DNA of 64,000 bases from an uncultured Bdellovibrionales bacterium (GCA_964605525.1 CAZSCV010000005.1:39256-103255); one strand, 5' to 3'; positions 1-35,814 are shown, numbered from the stretch's first letter. Notes: generated by a model not told the origin, from the sequence alone. A program made the numbers and translations.

Positions 1-196
1 GTTTTGGATTTCTTCAGAGAAATTGTAAGTGGAAAAATCTTTTTTGCTGCGCGAATCTTTGTTTTCGGCGATTTCCCAGGTTTTTTCTTTCGGTTCGGCA
101 AGATATTGAATGGAGTTGTAATGCCGAGCTTCATCTTGACCGGAGAAAATAGGGAAAACCGAAGCCAAAAAAACCTCCCTGAGAAAGAAAGAAAAT

Positions 197-307
197 AAAA
201 TCAAAAACAGGACAAATCCCGGTTTTTTCCAAAAATCTTTGTTGAATTGAGTGAATTTCATATTATTCAGTATACCGCTTTTTTTGATTTCGTAAAAGTG
301 ATATAAT
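197..307 (+). repeat. ~111-bp direct repeat, copy 1 of 2 flanking the Fic gene; ends in an extended -10-like GTGATATAAT
   Basis: Near-identical to 1704..1815. A ~73-nt core is identical (aaaatcaaaaacaggacaaatcccggttttttccaaaaatctttgttgaattgagtgaatttcatattattca) and the tail matches ...gatttcgtaaaagtgatataat. Confidence 0.85.
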
Positions 308-494
308 CAGAAAAAGGAAATAATTGAATATTGTGCTATATCAAACACGTTTCCGTAATTCATAAAAAATAGTGAATTAAAGAAATGAAATTTCTTAGAA
401 TCTATTGAAGTTAGTGAAATATTTGAAATGATTTGAAAATAAAAATAATTCGCTCAATGATTTTTGACAAGTGATTGATTTTTGGGATGAAAGT

Positions 495-523
495 TTGACA
501 ATCGTCTAATAATCGTCTATAAT
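495..523 (+). promoter_or_regulatory. sigma-70-like promoter (TTGACA-N17-TATAAT) upstream of the Fic gene
   Basis: TTGACA at 495-500, a 17-nt spacer, TATAAT at 518-523, and a second TATAAT at 529-534. The spacer contains repeat module A (atcgtctaataatcgtctataat), also present at 4664-4686. Confidence 0.55.
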
Positions 524-551
524 TAGTCTATAATAACAAGAAAAAATAGCT

Positions 552-1589
552 ATGTTTACGCCTAAATATGCCATTTCTAATCGACTATTGGCTAATATAA
601 AAAGGATAACCGAAATTACCACCGATCTAAACAGTCGCAGTTTTTCTGGTGTGGTTTTGACGGAGTTGGAAAAAAAAGCTCGTGAAATATCAGTTTTTTC
701 TTCAACTAGTATTGAAGGCAATCCATTGCCACTGACTGATGTTAAAAGAATCTTAAAGACTAGGCCGGAACATATTCGAGACACAGAGAAAGAAGTTTTG
801 AATTATAACAGGGCTCTGGTGGAATTGAATGACTTGATTCGGGATGAAAAACAAGTTTTTGAGTTGTCTTTAGTTTTGAAAATTCAAAAAACCATCACAC
901 AAGAGCTGATTGAGGATTATCGATGTGGTTTTTTGAGGCAAGAACCGGTTTTCGTAAACAATCCCAAGACGCGCCAAGTTGCGTATTTACCGCCTGATCA
1001 CATCGAAGTGCCGGTCTTGATAAATGATTTATTTGAATATATCAAAAGTAGCGAAAATAAAATTGACCCTTTGATTTTAGCGGGAATTTTTCACAAACAA
1101 TTTGTTATTATTCATCCATTTATCGATGGCAATGGACGAACAGCTCGCTTGGCGACTAAAGTTCTCCTGGCTAAAATGGGGCTGAATACTTTCAATTTAT
1201 TTAGTTTTGAAAATTATTATAACAAAAATGTTAGTAAATATTTTCAAGAAGTTGGACTTCTTGGGAATTATTATGACATCAATGATCAAATAGATTTCAC
1301 TGCTTGGCTGGAATATTTTACAGACGGTATTATTGATGAACTGTTGCGAGTCAGCAAAGAGATGTCTCGAGAATCTGTTTCTCCAAAGACAGAGTTGAAA
1401 GAGTATCACAAAAAAATCATCAACTACATCGAAAAACATGGATTCATCAGTGATCGCGATTATACCAAGATGACTGACCGAGCCAAGCCAACGAGAAATC
1501 TCGATTTTAGAAAATTGATAAACCTAGGTATCATTGAAATGGAGGGGAGGGGCAGAGCGACGTATTATAAATTAAAGAAAAAGTCATAA
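552..1589 (+). CDS. Fic/DOC family protein (AMPylation-type toxin fold) with a C-terminal winged-HTH-like region
   Basis: Canonical Fic motif HPFIDGNGRTARL in the translation. The gene is bracketed by ~111-bp direct repeats. Confidence 0.8.
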   Translation: MFTPKYAISNRLLANIKRITEITTDLNSRSFSGVVLTELEKKAREISVFSSTSIEGNPLPLTDVKRILKTRPEHIRDTEKEVLNYNRALVELNDLIRDEKQVFELSLVLKIQKTITQELIEDYRCGFLRQEPVFVNNPKTRQVAYLPPDHIEVPVLINDLFEYIKSSENKIDPLILAGIFHKQFVIIHPFIDGNGRTARLATKVLLAKMGLNTFNLFSFENYYNKNVSKYFQEVGLLGNYYDINDQIDFTAWLEYFTDGIIDELLRVSKEMSRESVSPKTELKEYHKKIINYIEKHGFISDRDYTKMTDRAKPTRNLDFRKLINLGIIEMEGRGRATYYKLKKKS

Positions 1590-1660
1590 TGTTTGTATGA
1601 TTTCAATCGCAAAAAATGGATTTGAAGCAAGCGGCAAAAGATGTGGAAAGATTTCTTTTT

Positions 1661-1690
1661 TATCCCGAACAAGCGGAGTGGATTTTGAAA
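1661..1690 (+). repeat. repeat module D (tatcccgaacaagcggagtggattttgaaa), second copy at 4782..4809
   Basis: Exact 28-nt match between two intergenic regions. Confidence 0.7.
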
Positions 1691-1703
1691 TAAGAAGGAA
1701 AGC

Positions 1704-1815
1704 AAAATCAAAAACAGGACAAATCCCGGTTTTTTCCAAAAATCTTTGTTGAATTGAGTGAATTTCATATTATTCAAGTGCGCTACTTTTTTCGATTTCG
1801 TAAAAGTGATATAAT
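1704..1815 (+). repeat. ~111-bp direct repeat, copy 2 of 2 flanking the Fic gene
   Basis: See copy 1 at 197..307. It is immediately followed by module C (gtgatataatgtctgtggaaggaatgat, 1806..1833), which recurs at 4732..4760. Confidence 0.85.
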
Positions 1816-1856
1816 GTCTGTGGAAGGAATGATTAAAGCAATAAAAAACAATAACC

Positions 1857-1912
1857 CTGTGCATCGGCGGGTTTTTAGGTATTTGACTTTTGGATTAGTT
1901 TTAAGTATACTT
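1857..1912 (+). promoter_or_regulatory. repeat module F (ctgtgcatcggcgggtttttaggtat) fused to a TTGACT-N17-TATACT promoter
   Basis: The module recurs at 2971..2996, where it precedes a TTGACA-N17-TACTAT promoter upstream of the AbiEi-like gene. It may be an operator plus promoter unit. Confidence 0.4.
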
Positions 1913-2001
1913 AAAATATATCAATAAAAATTAAAAACTTTTAACTATGAATAAAACATATCAAAAACGCCCATTTTATTTGAATAAAATTACCCCCTTT
2001 A

Positions 2002-2850
2002 TTGGGGTTGATCTTATTAAAGTGCTTATTGGACAGCGGACGTTACATTGAAATTCCAGTACACACTCTGTCGTATGGGGAGTTTTTGAAATTTCAAAAA
2101 CTGCCATCCAGCGAAGAGTCACTCCTGAAATATATTCGTTATGGTGGGTTGCCTTTTCTTTCTAATTTAAAGCTTACCGATGAAATTGTATATGGTTATT
2201 TGCAGAGTGTATACAATACAATTATTTTAAACGATGTAGTAGCAAGGTTTAGGATTAGAAATATTAACTTCCTTAATCGCCTTCTAGAGTATTTAGCAGA
2301 CAATATCGGTTCCTTAGTTTCCGCCAATCGAATTAGCGATTTTTTGAAATCGCAAAAAATAAAAACTACACCCAATATAGTTTTAGATTATTTGTCATTT
2401 CTGACTGCCAGCTTCATTATTCATGAAGTTAATCGCGCAAATATAAGAGGTAAAAAAGTTTTTGAAATCAATGAAAAATATTATTGGGAAGATTTGGGCT
2501 TACGAAATTCTAGGGCTGGATACAAATCGACGGAAATTGGTCAGATGTTGGAAAATTTAGTTTTTTCTCATTTGTTGCGACTTGGATTTGCCATTCATGT
2601 TGGACAACTGGCAAATAAGGAGATTGATTTTGTGGCGGAAAAAGAAGGAAAGAAAATATATATTCAAGTGGCATATTTGATAAATAATGATTCAGTCAAA
2701 AATAGAGAGTTTGGTAATCTTTTGGATATTAAAGATAATTATCAAAAAATTGTAGTTTCAATGGATAAAATAATAGGAAATGATTATAATGGGATTAAGC
2801 ATTGCCAGATTATTGATTTTTTACTCGATGATAATATATTGAAAATATAA
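2002..2850 (+). pseudogene. 5'-truncated ATPase of the AAA_14/DUF4143 family (N-terminal Walker A domain missing)
   Basis: The translation matches only the C-terminal two-thirds of DUF4143 ATPases (KYYWEDLGLRN, EIDFVAEKEGKKIYIQV). An in-frame TGA lies at 1981-1983 and the only start is TTG. The Fic repeat module lies immediately upstream. Confidence 0.6.
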
Positions 2851-2878
2851 ATTTATACCAGTCTTTTTCTGGCGGAAT

Positions 2879-2904
2879 AATTACAGGAAAGCGGGGTGAG
2901 GCTT
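2879..2904 (+). repeat. repeat module B (aattacaggaaagcggggtgaggctt) in a 3' UTR; second copy at 4624..4649
   Basis: Both copies lie about 30-50 nt after the stop of a plus-strand gene (2850 and 4575). Confidence 0.6.
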
Positions 2905-3091
2905 AAGAGATAAAAGATTTTAAAAAAATGATTGAGAATTTGAAATTAAAATTAATCTCCTTGTTCGAAGCTGTGCATAGACGGATTTTTAGGTATGAGA
3001 TGAGTGATGAATAAGGTCTTTTAAAAAGTATTTCTTGACATCCCGTTTCTGATAGTGTACTATTATTGTATACTATTAGAAATAAGTATTT

Positions 3092-3748
3092 ATGAGTAAA
3101 ATTGATAAAAATAAATCTAAAGCAATTTGGGAAGCTGTGAGAAATCTTCCTTATTTTACTATTTATGACTTGGTGTCAATGGAAAAAAACGGAGAATATT
3201 TAAAGGTATTGCTCTATAGATTTTCCAAGCAGGGGAAAATAAAGTCATTAAAAAGAGGTATTTATGTTAGTAAAAATTTCTTAGAAAATGTACATAAAAA
3301 AAATATTACTAACGAATATGCTGAATTCATAGGAAATATCATATATGAACCTAGCTATTTAAGTATGGATTACGTGCTTGAAAAATATTCGGTACTATCA
3401 GAATCAGTAAGTACTTTTACGCTAGTTAGTGAAAAAAAGACCAATAAATTTTCCAATTATTTAGGTATTTTTAAGTTTTATAGCATTAAAAAAAGTTTAT
3501 TCACCGGATTTAATATTAAGAAGAAGGGAGATTTTTTTATTGCCGAAGCCACTCTTGCAAAGGCTTTGTTTGATTTTTTATATTTCAGGAAAAATATTTT
3601 ATTTTCCGATAAGCAAGTGGACGAGTTAAGATTGAATCTGGATAATTTTACCAGAAAAGACTTTAAAGAATTAGAAAAATATATTAATTTGGAAAAATCA
3701 AAAAGAATGAAGAAAATTTTTGATTATTTAAAAATAAAATCAATATGA
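3092..3748 (+). CDS. AbiEi-like antitoxin/transcriptional regulator (type IV TA, putative)
   Basis: A ~218-aa protein directly upstream of, and overlapping by 4 nt (ATGA) with, an AbiEii/DUF1814 nucleotidyltransferase gene. The assignment rests on this positional pairing. Confidence 0.45.
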   Translation: MSKIDKNKSKAIWEAVRNLPYFTIYDLVSMEKNGEYLKVLLYRFSKQGKIKSLKRGIYVSKNFLENVHKKNITNEYAEFIGNIIYEPSYLSMDYVLEKYSVLSESVSTFTLVSEKKTNKFSNYLGIFKFYSIKKSLFTGFNIKKKGDFFIAEATLAKALFDFLYFRKNILFSDKQVDELRLNLDNFTRKDFKELEKYINLEKSKRMKKIFDYLKIKSI

Positions 3749-4575
3749 AAAAAGTAATCCTGGAGTTAAAAAATATTATTGATGAAAACTCTGACAGAAC
3801 TGATTCGTATAAACGAAATTTATTAAAAAATTATTTACAGGTATATGCTTTAAATTTTATTTATTCTGAAAAAAAATACAGTAATTTAATATTTTATGGA
3901 GGCTCAGTTCTTTCTCAGTGTTATAACTTACCGCGTCTTTCTGAGGACTTAGATTTTGTGGATCTGACTGGGCGCATTAACCTAAGCGATTTGGCGAATG
4001 ATTTAAAAAACTACCTTAAAAAAGAGTTGGGCTTGCCATTAGAAATTAAAATACAGAAATTTAGAATATATTTGAAAGTTCCAATTCTTAAGCAACTGGA
4101 GGTATCTACTGACTCAGAATCTGACTGGCTTTATTTAAAGGTGGAAATTTTTAATGGGACAGGCTTTTGCAAAAAGCATAAAACAGAAATTAGGCCACTT
4201 TTTAAATTTAATCAATCGGTGTTAATTAAAACTTTTGATTTGCCAACATTAATGGCAACAAAAATTGGGGCTATTTTACATCGAAAATGGGAAAAAATCA
4301 GCAAATCCGGAGAAGTTCTGCTGAGCGTCAAGGGAAGGGATTACTTTGATTTAATGTGGTATTTGCAAAAAGACATCTCTCCGAATTTAGATTGCATAAA
4401 GGAGGTTGAGGATGTTGCGGAGTTAAAGAACGAGCTTTTAGATATTGTGAATAAAATTGATAAACAAAGCATTATTCTCGATTTGGAAAATTTTATCGCA
4501 GATAGGGAATTTGTTAAAAATCTTGGAAAAAATATAAAAGATATATTAAAAATAGAAATTAATAAATTGCACTAA
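3745..4575 (+). CDS. AbiEii/AbiGii-family nucleotidyltransferase toxin (DUF1814)
   Basis: Family motif IFYGGSVLSQCY...RLSEDLDFV (GGTAL...R.SEDlDf). Confidence 0.7.
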   Translation: MKKVILELKNIIDENSDRTDSYKRNLLKNYLQVYALNFIYSEKKYSNLIFYGGSVLSQCYNLPRLSEDLDFVDLTGRINLSDLANDLKNYLKKELGLPLEIKIQKFRIYLKVPILKQLEVSTDSESDWLYLKVEIFNGTGFCKKHKTEIRPLFKFNQSVLIKTFDLPTLMATKIGAILHRKWEKISKSGEVLLSVKGRDYFDLMWYLQKDISPNLDCIKEVEDVAELKNELLDIVNKIDKQSIILDLENFIADREFVKNLGKNIKDILKIEINKLH

Positions 4576-4623
4576 GGATTATACCAAAACAATGCGGTCG
4601 TCGAGTTTTTGGCATAATCATTA

Positions 4624-4812
4624 ATTACAGGAAAGTGGGGTGAGGCTTGAAAAGCATTGGTTTATCGTCTAACAATCGTCTATAATCTATGAGGGAGATA
4701 AAAAAATAAAAATAACCCCGAGGTTAAAATGGGTGGTATAATGTCTGTGGAAAGAATGATCTGGATCTGGTTTCCATTTTACCCCGAACAAGCGGAGTGG
4801 ATTTTGAAACTG
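4624..4812 (+). repeat. composite of repeat modules B', A', C', D' in the spacer upstream of the glycan locus
   Basis: B' at 4624-4649, A' at 4664-4686 (with a TATAAT), C' at 4732-4760 (tggtataat extended -10), D' at 4782-4809. The order C-D is permuted relative to the D-E-C arrangement at 1661-1833. Confidence 0.7.
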
Positions 4813-4881
4813 TCGAAATATTTGAAAGGGTTTGAGATGTGAAAAATAATTCATTTAAAAATTTTTTAACAAAAAATAAAA

Positions 4882-5688
4882 ATGGAGATAAAGATTGAAG
4901 AAATCAAAGAAATCGCCAAAAAATCCGGGGAAAAAGTTTTGGAATATTATTACAAAGATTATAATATTTCATACAAAGATAACGGTGGCAAAAAATCACC
5001 TTTGACTGAGGCGGATTTGGCGTCGGATAAAATAATCATGGAAGGACTTGAAAAATACAATTTTCCGATTTTGAGCGAAGAAACGGAAGATGATTTATCA
5101 AGGATTCAAAGTGAATATGTTTGGATTGTTGATCCGTTGGACGGTACGAGTGATTTTATGGAAAAGACCGGTGAATTTTCGATTCTTATCGGGTTAGTGA
5201 AAAATGGTGATCCGGTTTTGGGTATGGTTTTCGAACCGGTAAAAAATACTTTTTATTGGGCGGAAAAAGGGAAGGGCGCTTTTATGGAAAAAAATGGAAA
5301 AATCAAAAAAATAAATGTTTCCAATAAGGATAATTTTCAAGATATGACTATTTTGCTCTCGCGAAATCATCTTTTGGAAAGCGATAAAAAACTTTGTGAA
5401 AATTTGAAAATAGGAAAACAAACAAAAAGAGGGTCGACTTCCAAAATGTGCGTGATTGCGCGTGGGGATGCGGAAATCTATGTAAATACCAGTGATAAAA
5501 CGGGGGAGTGGGATACTTGCGCGCCACAAGTAGTCTTGACGGAAGCGGGAGGTAAGATTGTGGATATGCGGGGAAAAGAACTAATGTATAACAAAAAAAA
5601 CCCGAAGAATCTTAATGGATTCGTGGTGTCAAATGGTAAAAATTATGCTAGAATAGTTGAGGAATTGAAAGGGGTAATAAAAAGTTAA
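4882..5688 (+). CDS. inositol monophosphatase family / 3'(2'),5'-bisphosphate nucleotidase (CysQ-like)
   Basis: IMPase motif WIVDPLDGTSDF. The gene is adjacent to the APS kinase. Confidence 0.65.
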   Translation: MEIKIEEIKEIAKKSGEKVLEYYYKDYNISYKDNGGKKSPLTEADLASDKIIMEGLEKYNFPILSEETEDDLSRIQSEYVWIVDPLDGTSDFMEKTGEFSILIGLVKNGDPVLGMVFEPVKNTFYWAEKGKGAFMEKNGKIKKINVSNKDNFQDMTILLSRNHLLESDKKLCENLKIGKQTKRGSTSKMCVIARGDAEIYVNTSDKTGEWDTCAPQVVLTEAGGKIVDMRGKELMYNKKNPKNLNGFVVSNGKNYARIVEELKGVIKS

Positions 5689-5702
5689 ATTCAATAAGAA
5701 TA

Positions 5703-6227
5703 ATGAAAAAAGGAATAGTGATTTGGCTTACGGGCTTGCCGTGCAGTGGGAAAACAACATTATCCAAGGAAATCGAAAAATATTTTCAGCAAAAGAATTT
5801 GCCCATTCAGAGATTGGATGGCGATGTGGTGCGTGAAACTATCAGCAAGGATTTGGGATTTTCGAAAAATGATCGAGATGTTAATATCGAGAGAATTTCG
5901 TATGTGGCGCAGATGCTTTCGGATAATGGTGTAAATGTTGTTTCCGCTTTTGTTGCTCCATATCAGAAAATGAGAAATTTTACACGTAGTCTTTGTGAAA
6001 ATTTCGTAGAAGTTTATGTTAAATGCGATATTGAAGAATGCAAGAGAAGAGATGTAAAAGGAATGTATGCCAAAGCCGCCAAGGGACAAATTAAAGATTT
6101 CACAGGAGTCGACGATCCTTATGAAACTCCAAATAATCCAGAGGTTGCTGTAAATACGGAATACGAAGAAATAAAAGAAAGTACAGAAAAAATTATTCGT
6201 TGTGTTTTAAATAAGCATACTTTATGA
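5703..6227 (+). CDS. cysC: adenylyl-sulfate (APS) kinase
   Basis: P-loop GLPCSGKTTL, an RLDGDVVR motif, and length/architecture typical of CysC. Confidence 0.85.
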   Translation: MKKGIVIWLTGLPCSGKTTLSKEIEKYFQQKNLPIQRLDGDVVRETISKDLGFSKNDRDVNIERISYVAQMLSDNGVNVVSAFVAPYQKMRNFTRSLCENFVEVYVKCDIEECKRRDVKGMYAKAAKGQIKDFTGVDDPYETPNNPEVAVNTEYEEIKESTEKIIRCVLNKHTL

Positions 6228-7039
6228 TAAAAATATTTTTTCTAAAAAAATATTATTTTATTGTTTATCATCTTACAAGAATGTTTTTTTTGGAAAATAT
6301 GGTGATAAATAAAGAAAACAAGCACAAAAGAATATATCATTATCATATTAGAAAAACCGGAGGAACAAGCTTGAATAAGATGTTTTTTTTATTAAATAAC
6401 ACAAAAGATGATTCAATGAATATATATAGTGAGATTTGCAATTCCATGAATCACAGAGCGGTTGATAGCATGAGTAGAATTTATGTTGGATATAATCCTT
6501 ATTTTATTGAAAATGAAGATTATTTTTATGGATTTTCTCATATTCCAATGCATAAAATAAAAATTCCTACAGAAATATTTACCTTTACAATAATAAGGGA
6601 TCCTGTCGAAAGAATATTGTCCCATTATAAAATGTTATTAGACTATGAAGCAAATAAAAATAAACATCCTTCGTTTAATACTGAAAAAAAATGGATAGGG
6701 GATAGCTTCGGTGATTTTATTAGTAGAGTGCCGTCTAGACATTTAATGAGGCAGTTGTATATGTTTTCCAATAGCTTTAATGTGGAAGAAGCAGTAGAGA
6801 ATATTTCAAAATGTTCCCATGTGATATTTTTTGAGGATTTTAATAAAGGAGTGAAATCGTTATTTGATAAACTAGAATTGGATATGCCGGAAATTATTCA
6901 TGAAAAGAAAAGTGCTGTATGTTTTGAGCCAAAATACGATGAATTGTTGATGTTAAGAAAACTGATAGAAAAAGAATTGGTTTTCTACGAAAGGGTAAAA
7001 TATATTTATAGGCATAGTGATTTATTGAATAATTTATGA
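6224..7039 (+). CDS. carbohydrate sulfotransferase (Sulfotransfer_2-like)
   Basis: 5'-PSB-like YHIRKTGGTSL and 3'-PB-like IIRDPVERILSHY motifs. ATGA overlap with cysC. Confidence 0.55.
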   Translation: MIKIFFLKKYYFIVYHLTRMFFLENMVINKENKHKRIYHYHIRKTGGTSLNKMFFLLNNTKDDSMNIYSEICNSMNHRAVDSMSRIYVGYNPYFIENEDYFYGFSHIPMHKIKIPTEIFTFTIIRDPVERILSHYKMLLDYEANKNKHPSFNTEKKWIGDSFGDFISRVPSRHLMRQLYMFSNSFNVEEAVENISKCSHVIFFEDFNKGVKSLFDKLELDMPEIIHEKKSAVCFEPKYDELLMLRKLIEKELVFYERVKYIYRHSDLLNNL

Positions 7040-7049
7040 ATACAAAAAA

Positions 7050-7679
7050 ATGATATTAAAAATTTTATTGCGAGAGATAAGATATGTATTTTCAGTAACG
7101 AAGAGGTTTTTTATAAGTCCAAAATTTCCAAAAAATAAAGACGGAAAGATCTTGATTCATATTGGATGCGGAGATATAAAAGACTCTTGTTTCGTGAATA
7201 TTGATGCGCGACCCATGGAGCATATTCATTATGTAACAAAAAATGTTGATAATTTAAGCTTCCTTCCATCTAAAAGTGTTGATTTATTGTATATGTGTCA
7301 TGTTATGGAGCATTTTGATAGAGCAAAATCTGTCATGGTTACAAAAGAATGCTTTAGGGTTCTCAAACATGGCGGAATATTGAGAATTTCCGTTCCAGAC
7401 TTCGATCGAATAGTTGATATTTATCTTGATAACAATAGAAACATGAAGGCTATTATAGCCCCGTTATTTGGAGGACAAGATTATGAGTTTAATTACCATT
7501 ACAATATGTTCAACAGAGAAAGTCTTGGTGAATTATTTAAACAATGCGGTTTTCGTATTACAAGAGAATGGAAGCCTGATGATGTGCAGTATCATAAATT
7601 TGATGATTGGTCGCGAAGAAAATTTAGCGTCGATGATAAAAAGTATATCATAAGTCTGAATTTGGAGGCTGTTAAATAA
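7050..7679 (+). CDS. class I SAM-dependent methyltransferase
   Basis: Motif I-like ILIHIGCGD and HVMEHF. Confidence 0.6.
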   Translation: MILKILLREIRYVFSVTKRFFISPKFPKNKDGKILIHIGCGDIKDSCFVNIDARPMEHIHYVTKNVDNLSFLPSKSVDLLYMCHVMEHFDRAKSVMVTKECFRVLKHGGILRISVPDFDRIVDIYLDNNRNMKAIIAPLFGGQDYEFNYHYNMFNRESLGELFKQCGFRITREWKPDDVQYHKFDDWSRRKFSVDDKKYIISLNLEAVK

Positions 7680-7697
7680 TCCATTTTATTTTTTTAA

Positions 7698-9005
7698 ATG
7701 AATTTATATAGAAGATTGTTAATTTTTTTAGAAAATATTCATGTGCTCATTTTTAAGCGCTCATCAGGAAGAAAGATGCGAGAATTTGCTATAAATCTTT
7801 CTTGGTCATTGGGTGGATTTTTTTTTAGTTCCTTTATATTATTTTTTCTTAATGTTTCAGCTGGTAGAATTTTAGGACCCGTCGGATATGGAAAATATAA
7901 TCTGATATTGGTTTTGGCAAATATTGTTTCTGTGGTTATCCTCCTTGGATTGAATACGACAACTACAAAATTTTTAGCAGAAAGTAAAAATGAATTGGAA
8001 AAGAAAAGAATTCTTTCAAATTCAATCATTATTATATCTATTACTAGTTTGATTTCTTTATGCTTATTTCTGCTGATGTTGTTTTTGGATTTATTTAATG
8101 GATTAAATTTAAATCCGAATCTGTTTTTTACAGCTATAATCTTTGCGATTTTGTTAAGCTATAAATCTTTATTTGACGGAATAGCCAAAGGATTAAATTT
8201 ATTTGAATATCAAACGAAAATTAGAATTGCGGAGAGTTTGATTGTAGTTATAATTTTTTTACTATTTTTTTCCCAACTAAAAATTGGCAATTTTTTCTAT
8301 TATGCCATATCCCTAATTGGAGGAATGGTGTTTTTTTGCCTATTTTTTTATTTTAAAATTAAAAGTTATGTAATAGGGTGGAGCATGCAACATTTTAAGA
8401 GGATATTTAAATATACAAGAGACACAATTGTTATTACTATTATTCTTATGATTGTAAATTATTTAGATAGGATTTTTGTAGGAAGATTTATTGGATTAAC
8501 AGATCTAGGAATATATAGTGCCTATCTAACTTCGTCATCAGTTTTCGTAGGTCAAATAATGATAGTTTTAAATAATGTTTTTTTTCCGGCAGTAATTTTA
8601 TTAGAAGATAAAGATGCAGTAAAAAAACAAGTAGATAAATTATTTATATTTTTTTCAATTCCAGTATTTTTTTTATTTTCCATTGTTTCATACGGAGCAT
8701 TGTATCTTTTTGGAAATAATTTTGAGAAGAATATTCTTATTATTTTTGCCTTTTCTTTTGCTTCCGTTCTTCAATTGTTTGGAAGCTTATATAAAAGTTT
8801 AGTATCTTCACATGAATCAAAATATGGAAAATATAGGAAACTTTCTTTTACTCTGCCGATTTTTTTTATAGTCTTTTATGGGATATTGGTTGTTTTTGAT
8901 TTAAAAAATTTAAATTACGCGACATTTGCCTATGTGGCGTTTGTAAGTTATAATTTTACTATTATTCGATTAAGTTGTAATTATGAAAAGAAAAAAAACA
9001 TTTAA
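7698..9005 (+). CDS. polysaccharide biosynthesis protein / Wzx-like oligosaccharide flippase
   Basis: 435 aa with about 12 predicted TM helices, in a glycan locus context. Confidence 0.5.
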   Translation: MNLYRRLLIFLENIHVLIFKRSSGRKMREFAINLSWSLGGFFFSSFILFFLNVSAGRILGPVGYGKYNLILVLANIVSVVILLGLNTTTTKFLAESKNELEKKRILSNSIIIISITSLISLCLFLLMLFLDLFNGLNLNPNLFFTAIIFAILLSYKSLFDGIAKGLNLFEYQTKIRIAESLIVVIIFLLFFSQLKIGNFFYYAISLIGGMVFFCLFFYFKIKSYVIGWSMQHFKRIFKYTRDTIVITIILMIVNYLDRIFVGRFIGLTDLGIYSAYLTSSSVFVGQIMIVLNNVFFPAVILLEDKDAVKKQVDKLFIFFSIPVFFLFSIVSYGALYLFGNNFEKNILIIFAFSFASVLQLFGSLYKSLVSSHESKYGKYRKLSFTLPIFFIVFYGILVVFDLKNLNYATFAYVAFVSYNFTIIRLSCNYEKKKNI

Positions 9006-9738
9006 AAAAAGAATTTTTAATGCGCTAAAAACTGTCGGACTTTGGGGTATTATAAAACTTATTTTTGTAAACATAAAATTGTATTATCTTAGAATAAGGA
9101 AAACTCCATCCTATTCGCAACTGTTCGAGGATTATTTTCTGGATTCATTGATGAAACATAGTAGAAATGGATTCTATGTCGATATTGGCGCTAATGATCC
9201 CTTTAATTTGAATAATACGGCATTTTTTTATCAAAAAGGATGGCATGGTATTAATATTGAACCGGATATGCAAAAATTTAATTTATTAAAAGAAAAAAGA
9301 CCTGACGATATTAATATAAACATGGGCGTAGGCAAGAATGCCGGAATACTTAAGTTCTACAGATTTAAAGATAGCTCCTTATGTACATTTTCAGAGGATG
9401 AGGCGAAAAAAAGAGTGCAGCAGGGCGTTGAATTGATTGGTGAAACTGAAGTCTTCGTAGATACTCTCGCGAATATTTTGGCAAAGAATATTCCATCGGA
9501 GAAGAGAATAGACTTTATTTCAATTGATGTCGAAGGTCTTAATCGAGATGTTCTGTATTCAAATGATTGGAAAAAATATAGACCAAGATATGTTTGCATA
9601 GAAGTTGCTGAGTATTGCAAAGATGTTTTAACTAAAGATATGGAGATTGTTAAATTTTTAGAAAAGCAGAAATACAAAGAAGTATTTTTTAATGGAATTA
9701 ATTCTATTTTTAAAGATATAAAAAAAAATGAAAAATAA
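8983..9738 (+). CDS. FkbM-family methyltransferase
   Basis: FYVDIGANDPFN and FISIDVEGLNRDVL motifs. Confidence 0.7.
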   Translation: MKRKKTFKKRIFNALKTVGLWGIIKLIFVNIKLYYLRIRKTPSYSQLFEDYFLDSLMKHSRNGFYVDIGANDPFNLNNTAFFYQKGWHGINIEPDMQKFNLLKEKRPDDININMGVGKNAGILKFYRFKDSSLCTFSEDEAKKRVQQGVELIGETEVFVDTLANILAKNIPSEKRIDFISIDVEGLNRDVLYSNDWKKYRPRYVCIEVAEYCKDVLTKDMEIVKFLEKQKYKEVFFNGINSIFKDIKKNEK

Positions 9739-10687
9739 GGACGAGATAGAGTTTAAGCAGGAATCCATTAATAATTGCCCTGTTTGCCTTTCGAGTGAGA
9801 TCAGGTTTCACTTAAGTAAGTTTGATGATAGATATGGACAAGCCGATATTTTTCATTTATATCGTTGTTTGGAGTGCGATGCAGTTTTTTTGAAAAATAG
9901 AATAAAAGAAGCTGAGCATCCTCCGTTGTACGAAAAATATTACATTTTTTTATCTAAAATTAATAAAAAGACTTCTACAAAGGAAGCATTTTTTTGGTTA
10001 CAAAAAATGATTATGAAGGTAGCAGGCGAGTTTTTTTTAATTGGGAAGATGAATTATGAAGCGAAAGTTCTTGAAATAGGTCCTGGCGATGTTTCTCAAT
10101 TATCAATGCATAGCATAAAAAAGAATAAGTTAAAATGGATTGGACTGGAGGTCAATGAAAAATGCGCGAAAAATATCAAAGGAAAGGGGTTAGATGTTTA
10201 TCGAGAGTCGTTCGGAGACTTTATTTCGAGAGGAATGAAATTTGATTCAATAATTTTGTCGATGTCAATAGAACATTTGCATGACCCAATCCTTTTTTTT
10301 GGTAATTGTAAAAAAGTTTTACATGAAGATGGTGTTATATTTTTAACTACCGCTAATCTGGATTCCAGATATCGAGAAAAATACAATAAAAGATGGATCA
10401 ATTGGCACGTCCCATATCACCAAGTGCTTTTTTCGAAAAAATCTATAAAAATGATTTGTGAAAATAATGGATTCTACATAAAAAAATATCACACATCTAC
10501 TCCAACTAGCTGGTTTTTATTGCAAAAGAAATTTAGTATACCTACGAGAGGAAAAATAAATACTGATTGTGCGATGAGTTTTTCATTTGTGGATTACTTG
10601 CTATTTTCAGTGTTCCTCAGATTTTATGAATTTTTTTCCAGGAATAGTGGGGATTGCATGTATTGTGAAATAAAATTAAGAAAGTAA
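9728..10687 (+). CDS. SAM-dependent methyltransferase with an N-terminal Cys4 zinc ribbon
   Basis: CPVC...CLEC pair and a VLEIGPGD motif I. Confidence 0.55.
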   Translation: MKNKDEIEFKQESINNCPVCLSSEIRFHLSKFDDRYGQADIFHLYRCLECDAVFLKNRIKEAEHPPLYEKYYIFLSKINKKTSTKEAFFWLQKMIMKVAGEFFLIGKMNYEAKVLEIGPGDVSQLSMHSIKKNKLKWIGLEVNEKCAKNIKGKGLDVYRESFGDFISRGMKFDSIILSMSIEHLHDPILFFGNCKKVLHEDGVIFLTTANLDSRYREKYNKRWINWHVPYHQVLFSKKSIKMICENNGFYIKKYHTSTPTSWFLLQKKFSIPTRGKINTDCAMSFSFVDYLLFSVFLRFYEFFSRNSGDCMYCEIKLRK

Positions 10688-10698
10688 ATAAAAAAAGT

Positions 10699-12891
10699 AT
10701 GTTTTTTTTGGGTGTGATTTTATTTTTTATTATACCGTCAAATATAGCGTTGCTTTTTTTTGCACATTTTTGTTTAGCAAAGAACTATAGGATAATTTTT
10801 ATAACTTCATATGGAGTAGCTCCCTTCTTAAGTCCAGTGCTTTTCTATTACCTGATTTGGTTTTTTCCGGAAAGGTCAGATTTGTTTTATTTGTTATGGC
10901 TGTCAATTTTTTGGATTATAGCATTGGTGATATCGTTTATGAAATGGAGAAAGGTCGCTTTGTTGTACAGGATGATTTATAGAGATTTCATCAGATTCTT
11001 TGAAATTTTTATAAGAATGAAAATGATTTCCTATTTAGCGGTGTTAAGTATGTTTTTATTCTTATATTTTATTCAATCTTTTTATTATCCGATTTTAGGG
11101 AATGACAATGCCCTTTATATTGGGCAAAGTATTGCATTGCGGGAATATAAAAACTTAGAATGGGAGAAAAAAACATTTGTCATGGTTGATGGAAGCGAAT
11201 ATAGATACAACTCATCAATTAGACCAGGAATTCCATTTTTTGTTTCTATCTTTATAATGAGCGGAGTGGATTACAGGAAAATGTTTCAGTTTATTTCTAC
11301 ATATTATTACGTTCTTCTTTTTGGAATATTTATGCTTTTTGTATATAAAGTATCCATAGAACTAAAAAAAAATATCGGGCGGTCTTTTTTTTGGGCCAGT
11401 TCATTCTTTTTGTTTTCTTGGGTGCTTACCAGAGCATTTATTTTTAATGCAAAGGAGATTGTAGTTTATTTTTTTGCACTTCTTTCTTTGTATTTAATTT
11501 ATGTTTTAATTAAGATGAAAGAGCGAAATATTTTTTTTGAATTATTAACAGGAATAGCAATAGGCGTGGGTGTTTTTGTTAATTTACACGGAGTGATAAT
11601 TGGCGGTATTGTTATTATGTTGTTATTTGTATTATCAAAGCTTAATATTAAGGAAAGAATTAAACAATGTGTTTCTATATTTTTATACCATTTTATTTTT
11701 AGTGCTTTTGATTTTGCGAGAATTTTTCGTTTTATATTTATTATTACCATAAAAGGTTTAATCGCAAAGGGTAGTATTTTTTTGAATAAAATATTTAGCG
11801 CTTTTGATTTTAAAAATAGATCTAATATTTTTTCTGATAATACAAACAATATTCCTAGAAATGAAATTAAAGAGGCTGATCATGCAGTACGGGCAGTGAT
11901 AGTGAATAATTCAGGAGGAAATATTAATTCCGGGATTTTGAGGGGTACCACCGGAAAGCACCTTGCGCTTTACGGAATGAAAAATTTATTTGATATATAT
12001 ATAAAGGGAAAATTTCAAATTTTTACAAATATAGGGGTTTTCGGTTTCTACTTTTGGGTTTTTTTGACTATATTAATGCTTAAGATAAGGGAGTTATTAA
12101 GGAGTGACATTACTAAAATTCTTGTATTTTTTATTTTAATTTATTTTTTATTTATACTGGATGTTTTTAACATAAACACTCACCCTGCCGCCATTGTATT
12201 ATGGGGGAGCACGAAATATGCGGCTTTATTGCTCCTTATAAGTATGATTGTGTCAAGCGTGTATATCGAACAATTTTTTGAATTTTTTATTGGTTTTATT
12301 AAAAAAAATGTTAGGAAAGTTATAATTTTTTCTTTCCTGGTCGTTTCTTTAATTATAAGTCTAAATAAATTATTTATATCGCTAGGAGTCAGCTTATTGT
12401 CATTGACAATTTCTTTTTCGAAAGACGAGTATTTTTATAGAGAAAAAGTAGAATATTTTTATTATATTTTAGTATTTTTTATAATTATTTTTTTAGTGGC
12501 TATTTTTTTATCAAAATACAGGGAAAAATTATCTTATAATATTCTCGTGTCTTCTTCATTGATGTTTTTTGTCTTAATGCCGTTTTTTATTACTACGGTA
12601 GGAAAAGTTGATTTATTAAAAACTTTTCATTATTTGAATAGTAGTTTGCAAAATAAGCTGGAGAAGAGTTATTTGAAAGATATATATGATGTGTATTTTT
12701 TTGCAAAAGATAACCTGAAAAAAAATTCCATCATTAGAACTGGATTTTATGACATATATACTTACAATGATTATTTTTCACTGAGAATGAAAAGCGATAA
12801 TGAAGTTCAATATGAGATAAGTGCTGAATGTGGTATAAGTAGTGCTCATATTATATATAACTCGAAAGAGGTTTATTTATGCGAGAAATAA
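10699..12891 (+). CDS. large polytopic membrane protein (730 aa), putative GT-C-type glycosyltransferase/polymerase
   Basis: More than 15 hydrophobic segments, in a glycan locus context. No specific family motif was recognised. Confidence 0.3.
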   Translation: MFFLGVILFFIIPSNIALLFFAHFCLAKNYRIIFITSYGVAPFLSPVLFYYLIWFFPERSDLFYLLWLSIFWIIALVISFMKWRKVALLYRMIYRDFIRFFEIFIRMKMISYLAVLSMFLFLYFIQSFYYPILGNDNALYIGQSIALREYKNLEWEKKTFVMVDGSEYRYNSSIRPGIPFFVSIFIMSGVDYRKMFQFISTYYYVLLFGIFMLFVYKVSIELKKNIGRSFFWASSFFLFSWVLTRAFIFNAKEIVVYFFALLSLYLIYVLIKMKERNIFFELLTGIAIGVGVFVNLHGVIIGGIVIMLLFVLSKLNIKERIKQCVSIFLYHFIFSAFDFARIFRFIFIITIKGLIAKGSIFLNKIFSAFDFKNRSNIFSDNTNNIPRNEIKEADHAVRAVIVNNSGGNINSGILRGTTGKHLALYGMKNLFDIYIKGKFQIFTNIGVFGFYFWVFLTILMLKIRELLRSDITKILVFFILIYFLFILDVFNINTHPAAIVLWGSTKYAALLLLISMIVSSVYIEQFFEFFIGFIKKNVRKVIIFSFLVVSLIISLNKLFISLGVSLLSLTISFSKDEYFYREKVEYFYYILVFFIIIFLVAIFLSKYREKLSYNILVSSSLMFFVLMPFFITTVGKVDLLKTFHYLNSSLQNKLEKSYLKDIYDVYFFAKDNLKKNSIIRTGFYDIYTYNDYFSLRMKSDNEVQYEISAECGISSAHIIYNSKEVYLCEK

Positions 12892-12899
12892 TTTAATTT

Positions 12900-13649
12900 T
12901 TAAGACCGAAATTTGTTTAGCTTGTCTATAATATTTAACAGAAAGATTAGGACGGAACTTTTTAAATATTGCTTGTGAATAAGATTATGCTCGTTGTTAG
13001 ATTTTCCTTTCGTGCTCTGTGAATCAGGATGAATAAAGAAATTACATATAGTTTTATTAAAAAATACCGGAAATACGTTGTTTTTTAAGAGCCGTAACCA
13101 CATCTCATAGTCCATTGAGTTCTTGTATTTTTCATTGAAGTATCCATATTTTTTGAATATTTTTTTCTGAATGAAAACGGATTGATGAGGAATATAATTA
13201 GTTGCTAGCAAAAGCCAGAACTTAGCTTTATGATAAATTTTTCTATGCGGGATTATTCTACTAGCTCCTCTTATCTCATTGATAAATAATGCTTTTCCAT
13301 ATATCCAATAAGGATTTTTGTTTATTAATATAAAGGCGTTGATTTCCTTTAATGTATCCGGACTAAATAAACTATCATCGGAATGCAAGTGAATAATATA
13401 TTTTCCCGACGATTTATTTATTCCAATATTCATAGCATTTCCGATTCCTCGCGGCTTGAATTGAAATAGTTTAACTTTTTCTGGAAATTCTTTTTGATAA
13501 CTTTTTATGATAGAGGTGGTTTTGTCTGATGAAAATCCATCAATGAATATGTGTTCAAAATTTTTGAATGATTGATTTTTTATGGAATCTATGTTTCTCC
13601 GGATATACTTTTCGCTGTTGTATGTGCAAGTAATTATCGAAAATTTCAT
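12900..13649 (-). CDS. glycosyltransferase family 2
   Basis: N-terminus FSIITCTYNSEKYI...FIDGFSSDKT. Confidence 0.8.
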   Translation of the reverse strand: MKFSIITCTYNSEKYIRRNIDSIKNQSFKNFEHIFIDGFSSDKTTSIIKSYQKEFPEKVKLFQFKPRGIGNAMNIGINKSSGKYIIHLHSDDSLFSPDTLKEINAFILINKNPYWIYGKALFINEIRGASRIIPHRKIYHKAKFWLLLATNYIPHQSVFIQKKIFKKYGYFNEKYKNSMDYEMWLRLLKNNVFPVFFNKTICNFFIHPDSQSTKGKSNNEHNLIHKQYLKSSVLIFLLNIIDKLNKFRS

Positions 13650-14770
13650 AATAAAGTGGATTTAATTATATTAGCTGCAGTTTTTGTTTTTTGGATAATT
13701 CCCCACGAATCATTTTTTAAGTGCAAATTATTTTCAAAAACATTTTTTATTGCCTTGGTGATTTCTTTTGAATTAGCAGATTTGATTATGTATCCATTTT
13801 TTCCATCTTCAATAAGATCGGCGCTCGCTCCAGCTTCTTTCGTTGCTATAACGGGTAGATCACAAGCCATAGCTTCATTTATTACCAAGCCCCAAACTTC
13901 CTCGTAAGATGGAAGTATCAGTAAATTGGAAATGGAATAATATTTGTAAAGATCGTCATATTGGATGAAATCAGTAAAAATTATATCTTTTAAATGCATT
14001 TTTTTTATAATTCGTTTCATCTTTTCTTTCTCTCTCCCTCTTCCTATGATTAACAAGGAAACGTCAGGGTCATAAGTATGATAGTCTTTAAAGCCCTCAA
14101 GGAGGTTATAAATTCCTTTTCTTTCAATTAGCTGTCCGTTAAATAATATTATTTTTGAAGTTTTTATTCCTAGTTTATTTGTTATCAATTTTTTTTCTGT
14201 TCGAGTAAGGTTTTTTGTCTTTTCTTTAAAGTAGTCTATGTCAATAGAATTGAAGATTATTTCAATGTTCTTAGGGTTAACTCCGAGCGAAATGATGTAA
14301 TCACGCGCTCTTGTTCCGTAGACTACAAATTTATCCGTATTTTTAAATAAATATTTCACAAGAGGAGAAAATATTGTTCTTCTCCAACTCGGTTCATATT
14401 TAGTACTTCCTGACCAAAGAATGAATTCTTTTTTGTTCTTGCGTGCCCACCAGTTTGCTGCGTAAGCAGCAAAATGATCCCAGCCGAAACATATTATTTT
14501 ATCTGGATTATTATGACTAAGCGCACTCAGTATGTTTGGGTTTATAAAGAAAGTAAAGAGATCTTTTTTTCCAATTCTGATGGCAAAATTTTTTAGAATT
14601 TCATAATCAAATCTGATGTTAAAATCTTTCCAATATCTATTTTTGTCACTTTTGCTCAGGAAAAAAACTTTAAGTGTGCTTTCGTTATTGTGATAATGTT
14701 TATTTAACTCATTGAATAAATGAATTCTTGCTGGGCTTATTATGTTATGTAATACGAGTATTTTCTTCAT
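13646..14770 (-). CDS. glycosyltransferase family 4 (GT-B)
   Basis: C-terminal EX7E-type region SYEEVWGLVINEAMACDLPVIAT. Confidence 0.7.
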   Translation of the reverse strand: MKKILVLHNIISPARIHLFNELNKHYHNNESTLKVFFLSKSDKNRYWKDFNIRFDYEILKNFAIRIGKKDLFTFFINPNILSALSHNNPDKIICFGWDHFAAYAANWWARKNKKEFILWSGSTKYEPSWRRTIFSPLVKYLFKNTDKFVVYGTRARDYIISLGVNPKNIEIIFNSIDIDYFKEKTKNLTRTEKKLITNKLGIKTSKIILFNGQLIERKGIYNLLEGFKDYHTYDPDVSLLIIGRGREKEKMKRIIKKMHLKDIIFTDFIQYDDLYKYYSISNLLILPSYEEVWGLVINEAMACDLPVIATKEAGASADLIEDGKNGYIIKSANSKEITKAIKNVFENNLHLKNDSWGIIQKTKTAANIIKSTLL

Positions 14771-14806
14771 TTTTTTGATGTAATTATGAAAAATGTTTAG
14801 AAGCGG

Positions 14807-15970
14807 TTATTTGTAGATATTTTCTAGCTTGGAACAAACTTTGTCTATGGAAAATTTAATCGCAATCATATTTTTTGAATTTATGGATAGTTTTTTCTTT
14901 AAATCGGAATCATTTAGGATAGTTAATATTTTATCTGAAAATTCAGTTTTATTTTTTAGTTCCAATTCAAAGCCTGCTTTATGTGTTTCAATTTCTGGAA
15001 CATTGCAGTTTTTTGAGATGATCTGGGGGATGCCAATGGCGGCGACCTCCAAAACTGTCATAGGTAGACCTTCGTTTCTGGATGTGAAAATAAAAATATC
15101 ACACGATTTTATCGTTTCGAGTTTTTCTTTTCCGGTTAGTATTCCAGTAAAAACAACGTTGTTTTGCAAATCTAGTTCAATTGCCATTTTTTTTAATTTT
15201 TCTTTTTCTCCTTCATCGGGACCGATAATAAGATAGGTGAATTTTGTTTTGTATTTTAGGGAAGATAGAATTTCTATTGATATATCCACTCCTTTGATAT
15301 ATTGCAATCTTCCGATATATGCGATGATTTTATTTTCTTTCGGAAAATTGTATTTTTTACTTAGATTGATTTTTTTGATGTTTTCAAATTCTTCAAGGTG
15401 GAGACCATTGGGAATGATAATAGTTTTATTCTCAAATTTTTTGTTTATTGAAATTATTTCACTTTTTTCATTTTCCGTCAGGGCAATAATGTTCTTTGAG
15501 TTTTTTAGTATGGTTGTAAAAATATCTAAAAAAATCTTTTTTATGAATTTAAATTTGGCCTCTTGTCGAACCAAGGAAAGAGTGCCGTGAGGTTGAATAA
15601 TGAAGGGAATATTATGTTTTTTGCAAAAATGGGCAGTAATGATGTTTTGTAAAGTAAAAAAATCATGGCAATGAACTACATCAAAATTTCGTATATTATT
15701 TTTAGCCCAAAAATAAAATCCAATTGGTAAGTACCCGTTGCAATTTTTGGCTAGCCAATTACTGATGTTTCTGAAGCGGATAATTTTTATTCCGTTAACA
15801 TCTTCTTGAAGTTTTAAGATTCTATTTTTTTTATCAAGTGTGTCTGTTGTGACCACGGTAACTTTGTTTTTGCGGGCGGTTAATTCTTTGGAAATATCGA
15901 AACAAACTTTAACTGGTCCGCCGAAGCCGTAGGCTGGAATAAAATATGGAATAACTTGAAGTATTTTCAT
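14807..15970 (-). CDS. glycosyltransferase family 4 (GT-B)
   Basis: RNEGLPMTVLEVAAIGIPQI motif. Confidence 0.7.
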   Translation of the reverse strand: MKILQVIPYFIPAYGFGGPVKVCFDISKELTARKNKVTVVTTDTLDKKNRILKLQEDVNGIKIIRFRNISNWLAKNCNGYLPIGFYFWAKNNIRNFDVVHCHDFFTLQNIITAHFCKKHNIPFIIQPHGTLSLVRQEAKFKFIKKIFLDIFTTILKNSKNIIALTENEKSEIISINKKFENKTIIIPNGLHLEEFENIKKINLSKKYNFPKENKIIAYIGRLQYIKGVDISIEILSSLKYKTKFTYLIIGPDEGEKEKLKKMAIELDLQNNVVFTGILTGKEKLETIKSCDIFIFTSRNEGLPMTVLEVAAIGIPQIISKNCNVPEIETHKAGFELELKNKTEFSDKILTILNDSDLKKKLSINSKNMIAIKFSIDKVCSKLENIYK

Positions 15971-22421: not shown

Positions 22422-22431
22422 TCTTTTAAAT

Positions 22432-22476
22432 TTAATGTACCAGTTTCCAGAGCATTTTCCAGACGGTTTTGATGCC
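22432..22476. repeat. 45-bp direct repeat, copy 1, duplicating the 3' end of the GT2 gene at 23805..24494; the second copy is 23805..23849 (the native 3' end)
   Basis: 44/45 identical. The reverse complement encodes GIKTVWKMLWKLVH plus a stop, which is the C-terminus of the GT2. The copies bracket the second AbiE-like cassette. Confidence 0.85.
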
Positions 22477-22553
22477 ACTTGTAAGGGCAAATTGACAATA
22501 TTTCAAGTTATGATAAACTGAAAGTAAGAAAAAATAACACTTTTAGTCTATAT

Positions 22554-35665: not shown

Positions 35666-35688
35666 ATTTGTGCAGTTGTAAGTTTTCT

Positions 35689-35713
35689 GGATTCCCGCCT
35701 CCGCGGGAATGAC
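35689..35713. repeat. right palindromic inverted repeat ggattcccgcctccgcgggaatgac, the exact reverse complement of 35347..35371
   Basis: 25/25 reverse-complement match. Each copy can fold as a 7-bp stem hairpin. It is followed by a purine-rich gggaatga-type degenerate repeat run to ~35800. Confidence 0.85.
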
Positions 35714-35814
35714 AAGTGGAGGTGGGAATGATAAAAAAGAGATGGGAATAATGAAGTGAAGAAGAGAATGATAAGGTAAAGAAGTGGGGGATGATGAGTA
35801 GAGAGGGAAGCCTT

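Follow-up and report, generated by a model that had tools for sequence, protein, structure and literature searches.

Repeat modules in the variable defence-gene slot of a Candidatus Moranbacteria genome are mostly leftover ends of neighbouring genes and promoters

Defence islands and hotspots are intervals in which different anti-phage systems occupy the same place between conserved genes of related strains. Homology-facilitated illegitimate recombination, as well as microhomology-mediated duplication and template switching, are known from naturally transformable bacteria. AbiE is a type IV toxin-antitoxin (TA) and abortive infection system (Dy et al. 2014, PMC3985639). In this study, we analyzed a stretch of DNA of 64,000 nucleotides (nt) (GCA_964605525.1, CAZSCV010000005.1:39256-103255; hereafter the window), in which a fic gene, the remains of a PDC-S01 ATPase gene and an AbiE gene pair are separated by short repeat modules near the left end. 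Homologues of the protein encoded at its left edge, a GT39-type membrane glycosyltransferase, place the source organism in Candidatus Moranbacteria, within the Candidate Phyla Radiation (CPR)/Patescibacteria, and the interval lies inside a cell-envelope (surface) polysaccharide locus. Positions 185-4881 are probably the variable slot of a defence-gene hotspot, built up by successive homologous and microhomology-mediated insertions that duplicated the ends of their targets. The modules are mostly leftover ends of neighbouring genes and promoters, duplicated by repeated insertion of defence genes, and we rule against a new cassette system. The left border of the slot would be the divergent GT39 gene with its promoter, and the right border the leader of the next operon, here cysQ-cysC.

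A sequence-only reading of this DNA had proposed that six modules (A-F), recurring two or three times, serve as shared regulatory and recombination sites for cassette exchange. All six were detected well above chance using BLAST within the four intergenic segments of 185-4860 (E values from 2e-47 to 6e-5), namely E (185-307 and 1692-1815; 91% identity, 2e-47), D (1658-1690 and 4777-4809; 97%, 3e-12), B (2878-2904 and 4622-4648; 96%, 5e-9), C (1806-1833 and 4733-4760; 93%, 1e-7), A (501-523 and 4664-4686; 96%, 2e-6) and F (1857-1882 and 2971-2996; 88%, 6e-5). A seventh module, G (402-460 and 4798-4860; ~76% DNA identity), was added here. The recurrence is therefore real, with exactly two copies of each module rather than two or three; the one internal tandem, of 11 bp, is that of A (501/512/523). 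The permuted order, D-E-C against B-A-C-D, also holds, the four segments reading E..G..A (S1), D-E-C-F (S2), B-F (S3) and B-A-C-D-G (S4), and several modules do contain promoter elements. All modules are confined to 185-4860, and no further copies were found in the remaining 59 kb of the window, even by fuzzy search. When all modules and the unique spacers were used as queries of this search (≤20% mismatch; ~120 loci and the whole window), B, the core of C and the spacers u6 and u9 were found only here, and exact-pattern scans gave 0 matches for B in metagenome contigs and 0 for F in genome contigs. Absence elsewhere, which the earlier reading had named as evidence against itself, was observed for B and F, the window being the part of the source genome covered; E, D/G, A and C do occur in relatives, where they are parts of genes or promoters at orthologous places and not mobile modules. 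Overall, that reading is partly supported: a mosaic without an integrase was right, and shared recombination modules were wrong, five of the six modules, together with G, being identifiable gene or promoter relics.

Module E is the 5' end of the GT39 gene with its promoter. The gene is on the minus strand, its 5' part occupying positions 1-261 (start codon at 261) and the remainder running left beyond the window; the complete open reading frame (ORF) of 485 amino acids (aa) is visible in contig L001, and its homologues are named glycosyltransferase family 39. E1 (185-307), the functional copy, comprises GT39 codons 1-26 (185-261) and the minus-strand GT39 promoter (-35 at 296-291, -10 TATACT at 274-269), and also contains a rightward TG-extended -10 (GTGATATAAT, 298-307). 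Four loci of relatives (L005, L006 and both L007 loci) have the module in the corresponding position. E1 is 83-97% identical to this region of L005, L006 and L007a and 73% identical to that of the L007b paralogue, the homology to L006 and L007 breaking off precisely behind the -10 box (GTGrTATAAT). E2 (1692-1815) repeats the 5' end and promoter of GT39 as a dead copy; it encodes the same 26 residues on the minus strand from a pseudo-start near 1768, and its GT39 -10 box has been destroyed by clustered changes. The minus-strand ORF at 1565-1864 contains MKFTQFNKDFWKKPGFVLFLILLSFL; this 99-aa ORF and the small plus-strand ORFs were rejected as real genes, being read-throughs of relics. The coding part of E1 is identical to that of L005, and the coding part of E2 is 1 mismatch away from L006 and 3 from E1, and this resemblance to different relatives suggests possible input from different lineages. 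L007 contains two paralogous GT39 genes (2138-3595 and 10001-11467), each with an E-like promoter region; only one of them has an AbiE slot, and the other faces an MBOAT gene. In L005, L006 and L007a, a conserved palindrome, GACAATTGTC, follows just after the -10 box GTGGTATAAT and is absent from both copies in the window. It is probably an operator of the slot promoter.

Modules D and G, judged by homology, represent the 3' coding end of a toxin gene, AbiEii, of an ancestor, namely its last ~35 codons. In the relative L093, the gene order is GT39, AbiEi, AbiEii (266 aa, intact at the slot position) and full-length PDC-S01. We identify D and G with the tail of this gene because the C-terminus of the L093 AbiEii (...DLKQAAKDVERFLFYPEQAEWILKLPEYLK) matches window positions 1574-1690 (tblastn, 72% identity, E = 1e-13) and 4771-4836 (77% identity, E = 1e-7); a weak protein-level match (58%) was also seen at 402-437. 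The first of these relics, G1 (402-460, plus strand), contains the last ~12 AbiEii codons and a promoter-like site (433-461), and D1' (1619-1690, plus strand) corresponds to AbiEii codons ~232-255 (DLKQAAKDVERFLFYPEQAEWILK). The third lies in the native upstream region of cysQ (4712-4881, plus strand), which consists of TGGTATAAT and C2 (4733-4760), a 15-nt insert, D2 (4771-4809) and G2 (4798-4860), with a promoter-like site at 4822-4850, and is derived from the AbiEii 3' tail. All that is left of the older AbiEii is three pieces of its 3' end, and one of these has become the leader of cysQ. L005, L007, L093 and L128 share the D-G relic, and an AbiEii tail relic stands 3' of an unrelated HTH-PRTase gene in L005 and of a different AbiE pair in L007. 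In L093, the AbiEii frame runs into the conserved PDC-S01 promoter region (3500-3548, ending ...KSFKYT and a stop codon), and therefore the last codons of the toxin and the next promoter overlap.

Module C has its native place in front of cysQ, since window positions 4727-4780 are 92.6% identical to the native cysQ upstream region of L128 and L129, and C2 is therefore the cysQ promoter/leader. C2 is itself derived from the AbiEii tail, with the 15-nt insert in frame. The C-D junction, which had been taken for a recombination joint, turned out to be continuous ancestral AbiEii coding sequence interrupted by this insert. An initial assignment of C as purely AbiEii-derived was revised when L128 showed C2 to be the native cysQ promoter/leader. 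C1 (1806-1833, plus strand) is a displaced copy of 18-28 nt of this promoter/leader.

Module A is the predicted promoter/operator of fic itself. A1 (478-551, plus strand) includes a perfect TTGACA-17-TATAAT promoter (495-523) and three 11-bp direct repeats (501-534; the repeat unit in A1 and A2 is ATCGTCTA), and travels with fic, being kept upstream of the fic orthologues in L008-L011. A2 (4658-4686, plus strand) stands alone, not being followed by a fic gene. Module F corresponds, as indicated by protein similarity, to the 5' end of a Wzx-type flippase gene. Its one fuzzy match, with 5 mismatches, falls on the start of the flippase gene in L012, and residues 1-26 of a small ORF at 2927-3013 align with residues 1-26 of that flippase (BLASTP, 50% identity, E = 4e-6). 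Two relics of this gene are present on the plus strand: relic a (1821-1882; MIKAIKNNNPVHRRVFRY), which contains F1 and is 5 codons shorter than relic b, and relic b (2927-3042), which contains F2 (2971-2996) and reads MIENLKLKLISLFEAVHRRIFRYEMSDE up to a stop codon, then continues out of frame to ~3042.

Module B is the exception. Its two copies lie on the plus strand in the B1 region (2851-2906; core 2878-2904), which begins directly after a stop codon, and the B2 region (4576-4650; core 4622-4648), which begins directly after the abiEii stop codon. No gene or flank matching B was found by tblastx or blastn in all fetched loci or in the rest of the window, the hits being noise. On the minus strand, B encodes ...PLSCNYSARKRLV and a stop codon, resembling the C-terminus of the flippase encoded in the window itself (RLSCNYEKKKNI and a stop codon). 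Three candidate sources were tried and rejected: the flippase C-terminus gave E = 0.27 and an unconvincing DNA alignment, similarity to the flippase upstream region (L125, L128 and L012) was not above that of shuffles, and the likeness of B2 to the region upstream of A1 was at background level.

Comparison with relatives revealed shared flanks and different cargo in each genome. The GT39 gene and module E are present in L005, L006, L007 (twice) and L093, and the slot leader u1 (308-401, plus strand) is conserved with L005 over 308-365. Between the flanks, L005 has an HTH-PRTase (PsyrT/ShosT-like; PsyrT-like model 1e-18), L006 and L007a an AbiE pair of 189/233 aa, L093 an AbiE pair of 207/266 aa plus PDC-S01, and the window SoFic, a dead PDC-S01 and an AbiE pair of 218/276 aa; there are defence-model matches for the whole of this cargo. 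The limits of the cassettes are also shown. Homologues of the units in ~115 other loci share sequence with them only from the -35 box to the stop codon: the homology covers 478/495-1588 for fic and 3035-4574 for AbiE, and for PDC-S01 its left end falls at 1878-1899 in 19 of the 22 loci and its right end never beyond 2853. Neither the search for an empty-slot allele via cysQ homologues, the closest of which (95% aa identity, L125-L127) lie in a different context without a slot, nor the distant GT39/cysQ relatives (upstream gene of L128, and L130) yielded further slot alleles. No recombinase, integrase or transposase was found among the annotated genes and Pfam matches in the ~3 kb upstream and ~11 kb downstream, where the annotated neighbours are glycosyltransferases, sulfation genes and methyltransferases only, and the earlier reading is supported in that the slot is strain-variable and lacks a recombinase over this distance. 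The fic contigs in five assemblies (L002, L008, L009, L010 and L011) stop 0-400 nt after fic, suggesting polymorphism downstream of this gene in many populations.

The cargo consists of putative defence systems, assigned by model match, and the toxin/defence mosaic seen by the earlier reading is upheld by PADLOC, which assigns SoFic, PDC-S01 and AbiEi/AbiEii. The SoFic-like fic gene (552-1589, plus strand, 345 aa) matches Pfam Fic (5e-19) and PADLOC SoFic (7e-45). Both defining features of Fic/SoFic proteins are present in its translation, HxFx(D/E)GNGRxxR as HPFIDGNGRTAR and the N-terminal inhibitory motif (S/T)xxxE(G/N) as STSIEG. Its orthologues are 73-89% identical and widespread in CPR bacteria, and both Fic and the PDC-S01 ATPase show unusually high conservation among CPR lineages (73-90% protein identity). 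The PDC-S01 unit (AAA_14 + DUF4143 ATPase; 1883-2850, plus strand; promoter 1883-1911; PADLOC 2e-95) is a pseudogene. It had been described as 5'-truncated; in fact, codons 1-31 of the 405-aa protein are kept at 1947-2039 and codons 135-405 at 2035-2847, and an internal deletion removes the P-loop region and shifts the frame, with the DUF4143 part at 2002-2850. Another Moraniibacteriota metagenome-assembled genome (L110, 1443-2221) has an independent internal deletion of codons 25-170 in the same ATPase, and loss of the P-loop part seems to recur. The AbiE unit (3035-4575, plus strand) consists of a promoter (3035-3063), abiEi (3092-3748) and abiEii (3745-4575), which overlap by 4 nt and encode proteins of 218 and 276 aa, and a predicted operator (3045-3083), an inverted repeat with a 16-bp stem conserved in >25 homologous loci. 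It matches PADLOC AbiEi (7e-43) and AbiEii (4e-29) and Pfam AbiEii (2e-18), and the 218-aa protein, earlier called AbiEi-like, is a clear AbiEi. Overlapping genes for a winged helix-turn-helix antitoxin and a DUF1814 nucleotidyltransferase, together with the inverted repeat, would make it a type IV TA system. In L012, which contains the closest AbiE homologue, genes for HATPase_c-like and STAS-domain proteins (5129-6271) lie between AbiE and the flippase and may be another small defence or regulatory pair.

Further examination of the boundaries revealed that the novel joints carry microhomology of 4-10 nt. E2 is joined to C1 inside the shared GTGrTATAAT, C1 to flippase relic a through AATGAT, relic a to the PDC-S01 unit at GTAT, relic b to the AbiE unit through ~8 nt (TTGACATC), and D1' to E2 at TGA(A/G)AA. 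The structure as a whole, (E1...fic...D1')(E2...PDC-S01, AbiE...D2), looks like two slot alleles in tandem. We infer the order of events and, from these joints, the mechanism of recombination as follows. The slot of the ancestor would have held an AbiEi/AbiEii pair, into which a SoFic-type fic, a PDC-S01 ATPase and a second AbiE pair may later have been spliced as units running from their own promoter to the stop codon, with earlier cargo being deleted. Homologous exchange would have acted through the conserved borders, and the other ends may have been joined by illegitimate, microhomology-mediated events, possibly via circular or tandem intermediates. In this way the insertions would have duplicated the ends of the genes they struck, leaving scars that now appear as modules and one intact copy of GT39. 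A full event-by-event history was abandoned, several event orders fitting equally well.

The identity of most modules bears directly on the proposal that they are dedicated recombination or regulatory sites of an integron-like mini array with no integrase nearby. Such an array would account for the two units bounded by F to their left and by B to their right (F1-PDC-S01-B1 and F2-AbiE-B2), for the position of B immediately after the stop codon in both, with no source gene matched, for the compact cassettes and for the variable cargo among relatives. However, E, D, G, C, F and A are pieces of flanking genes and promoters, for which the proposal is largely refuted, and B and F are absent from the ~115 loci with homologous cassettes, from the rest of the window and from the exact-pattern scans of public collections. 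The modules are also not inverted repeats, the cassettes have their own promoters and there is no recombinase nearby. We therefore regard a mini array as very unlikely. Turning back to successive insertions in a hotspot slot, several points weigh against this explanation. The microhomologies are short and lie in AT-rich DNA, several histories are equally parsimonious, and the argument for different lineages of E1 and E2 turns on 2-3 sites. Both copies of B start right after a stop codon, are 96% identical and match no gene, which makes a dedicated 3' site possible. In addition, the partial relics complement one another, G1 taking up where D1' stops and B2 and F1 together covering nearly the whole of B1-u6-F2. 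This regularity hints at a circular-intermediate process more specific than random scars.

A variant of the same explanation would accordingly invoke a single complex event, or only a few, proceeding through specific circular or tandem intermediates, possibly as a recurrent mechanism, and we hold it as a tentative possibility. One circle would have consisted of the AbiEii tail, the fic promoter and fic, opened within the tail; another, of PDC-S01, B..F, AbiE and B..F, opened between B and F; both would have integrated by short homology. The end of D1' (at 1690) and the start of G1 (at 402) have ~9-12 nt of the AbiEii tail in common, so that the two add up to a single tail in circular permutation around fic; B2 and F1 between them supply almost all of B1-u6-F2; and Campbell-type integration of a circle that closed at D/E would yield exactly E1...D1'/E2. 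Permuted relics are expected when circularised fragments integrate via short homology, but equally from tandem duplication followed by deletion, and the pattern comes from one genome only and could be coincidence. A broader idea, which we consider rather improbable, is that in CPR bacteria, with their few classical mobile elements, defence genes spread as promoter-to-stop units via circles and short homology or microhomology, without a dedicated recombinase. If true, the permuted relics G1...fic...D1' and F1...PDC-S01...B1-F2...AbiE...B2 would be direct footprints of circles, and B could be an unrecognised joint sequence.

The tandem arrangement could also be an assembly artefact that strings together alleles of co-existing strains. 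Contigs of sister samples break at 1590 (L002), 1710 (L004; where the exactly shared part of E2 starts) and 4617 (L003; immediately ahead of B2), sample ERZ27284381 has no recorded contig bearing the AbiEii protein, and other assemblies have several fic contigs that stop a short way past the gene. Against this, window positions 1-5228, every novel joint included, recur at 100% identity in contig L001, which comes from another sample and another assembly and extends 2.8 kb leftward of the window; the structure is therefore not a one-off assembly chimera. L004 covers 1710-9290, the joints D1'/E2, E2/C1 and C1/F1 need k-mers (k = 119) that must be present in reads, and the exact repeats (≤67 nt) are shorter than k. 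An artefact is thus extremely unlikely, and the breaks at 1590, 1710 and 4617 may reflect strain variation. A further question is whether the duplicated modules have been retained for a present function, with A2 as a Fic-controlled promoter/operator decoy before cysQ, G1 and G2 as promoters and E2-C1 as a hybrid PDC-S01 promoter. In favour of this, neither 11-bp repeat of A2 nor its TATAAT has been lost, and its identity to A1 and to the L009 promoter is 96%; TTGAAA-17-AATrAT sites are scored in both G1 and G2; L005, L007 and L128 retain the D-G relic ahead of different downstream genes; and the C-terminal region of Fic is a putative DNA binder. On the other hand, the leftward -10 of E2 is destroyed and PDC-S01 is dead, showing that the region is at least partly decaying, and the high identity may simply reflect recent origin. 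Retention for function thus appears unlikely, and scars of successive insertions into a hotspot slot remain the explanation that we favour.

To the right of the slot, cysQ-cysC (4882-6227, plus strand), which mark its border, are the first genes of a sulfated-polysaccharide operon and are followed by genes for a sulfotransferase, methyltransferases and a Wzx-type flippase. A block of 1.29 kb (4894-6182), beginning at cysQ codon 5 and stopping within cysC, is 94% DNA-identical to a Moranbacteria genome (L125-L127) in which the gene context is different (epimerase-cysQ); therefore, mosaic recombination is common in this polysaccharide/defence locus. The GC content is 28-35% in positions 1-16000 (the polysaccharide/defence locus) compared with 35-47% in 20000-64000, and the low value fits a horizontally exchanged surface-polysaccharide region. 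No tRNA or tmRNA was found in the whole 64-kb window, and an Rfam search of the same sequence gave zero families; because both searches were empty, the modules are neither known RNAs nor att sites derived from tRNA genes. Elsewhere in the window, three other repeats were observed: a 35-nt direct repeat (86%; 35680-35714 and 37351-37385) with a GC-rich palindrome (GGATTCCCGC...GCGGGAATGACA), which may be a terminator-like or REP-like (repetitive extragenic palindromic) element; a 56-nt direct repeat (91%; 22430-22485 and 23803-23858, 1.4 kb apart), probably paralogous coding sequence; and low-complexity repeats of the CAATTTCCAA type common to 37143-37200 and 44987-45044.

This locus leaves current concepts unchanged and is a clean worked example rather than a discovery. 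The hotspot can be read like an archaeological layer, in which each short repeat is the scar of a cut or displaced gene. It lies in a Patescibacteria genome in which defence genes turn over without visible mobile-element machinery, and its compact promoter-to-stop units show 75-90% protein identity across several CPR lineages. The tail of an old toxin gene has, moreover, found a second use as promoter/leader of the housekeeping operon that begins with cysQ.

Compared with integrons, the locus shares a row of compact gene units that all point the same way, beside a conserved border with a promoter, but it has no IntI, no attI and no attC-type imperfect palindromes. No inverted repeats were found in or around B, D and F, B being a direct repeat without a palindrome, and the units are not promoterless cassettes, since they have their own conserved promoters at 495-523, 1883-1911 and 3035-3063. 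It also differs from a site-specifically integrated element, with neither integrase nor tRNA and with flanking repeats that differ by unit (E, C and F/B), and from REP-like or MITE-like (miniature inverted-repeat transposable element) families, each module having two copies within 4.7 kb and none, apart from orthologous relics, in the other 59 kb of the window or in ~130 related loci. The AbiE unit agrees with the described system (PMC3985639) in its bicistronic, overlapping abiEi-abiEii genes, model matches and promoter inverted repeat, known here from the DNA sequence alone; what differs is the second, older AbiEii left as 3'-terminal fragments. As in homology-facilitated illegitimate recombination, one side of the insert lies in homologous sequence and the other joints have 4-10 nt of microhomology, with short templated patches, such as C1, copied from nearby. 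The target-end duplications of 40-150 nt are atypical of that process, the mechanism here being deduced from the joints only, and suggest circular or tandem intermediates. The closest likeness is to defence hotspots, with which the locus shares conserved borders (the GT39 gene with its promoter, and the leader of the downstream operon) and a different defence or TA cargo in each relative. It differs from them in being located in the surface-polysaccharide locus of a CPR genome, with no mobile-element genes, and in having alleles apparently stacked in tandem with the scars of the border genes preserved.

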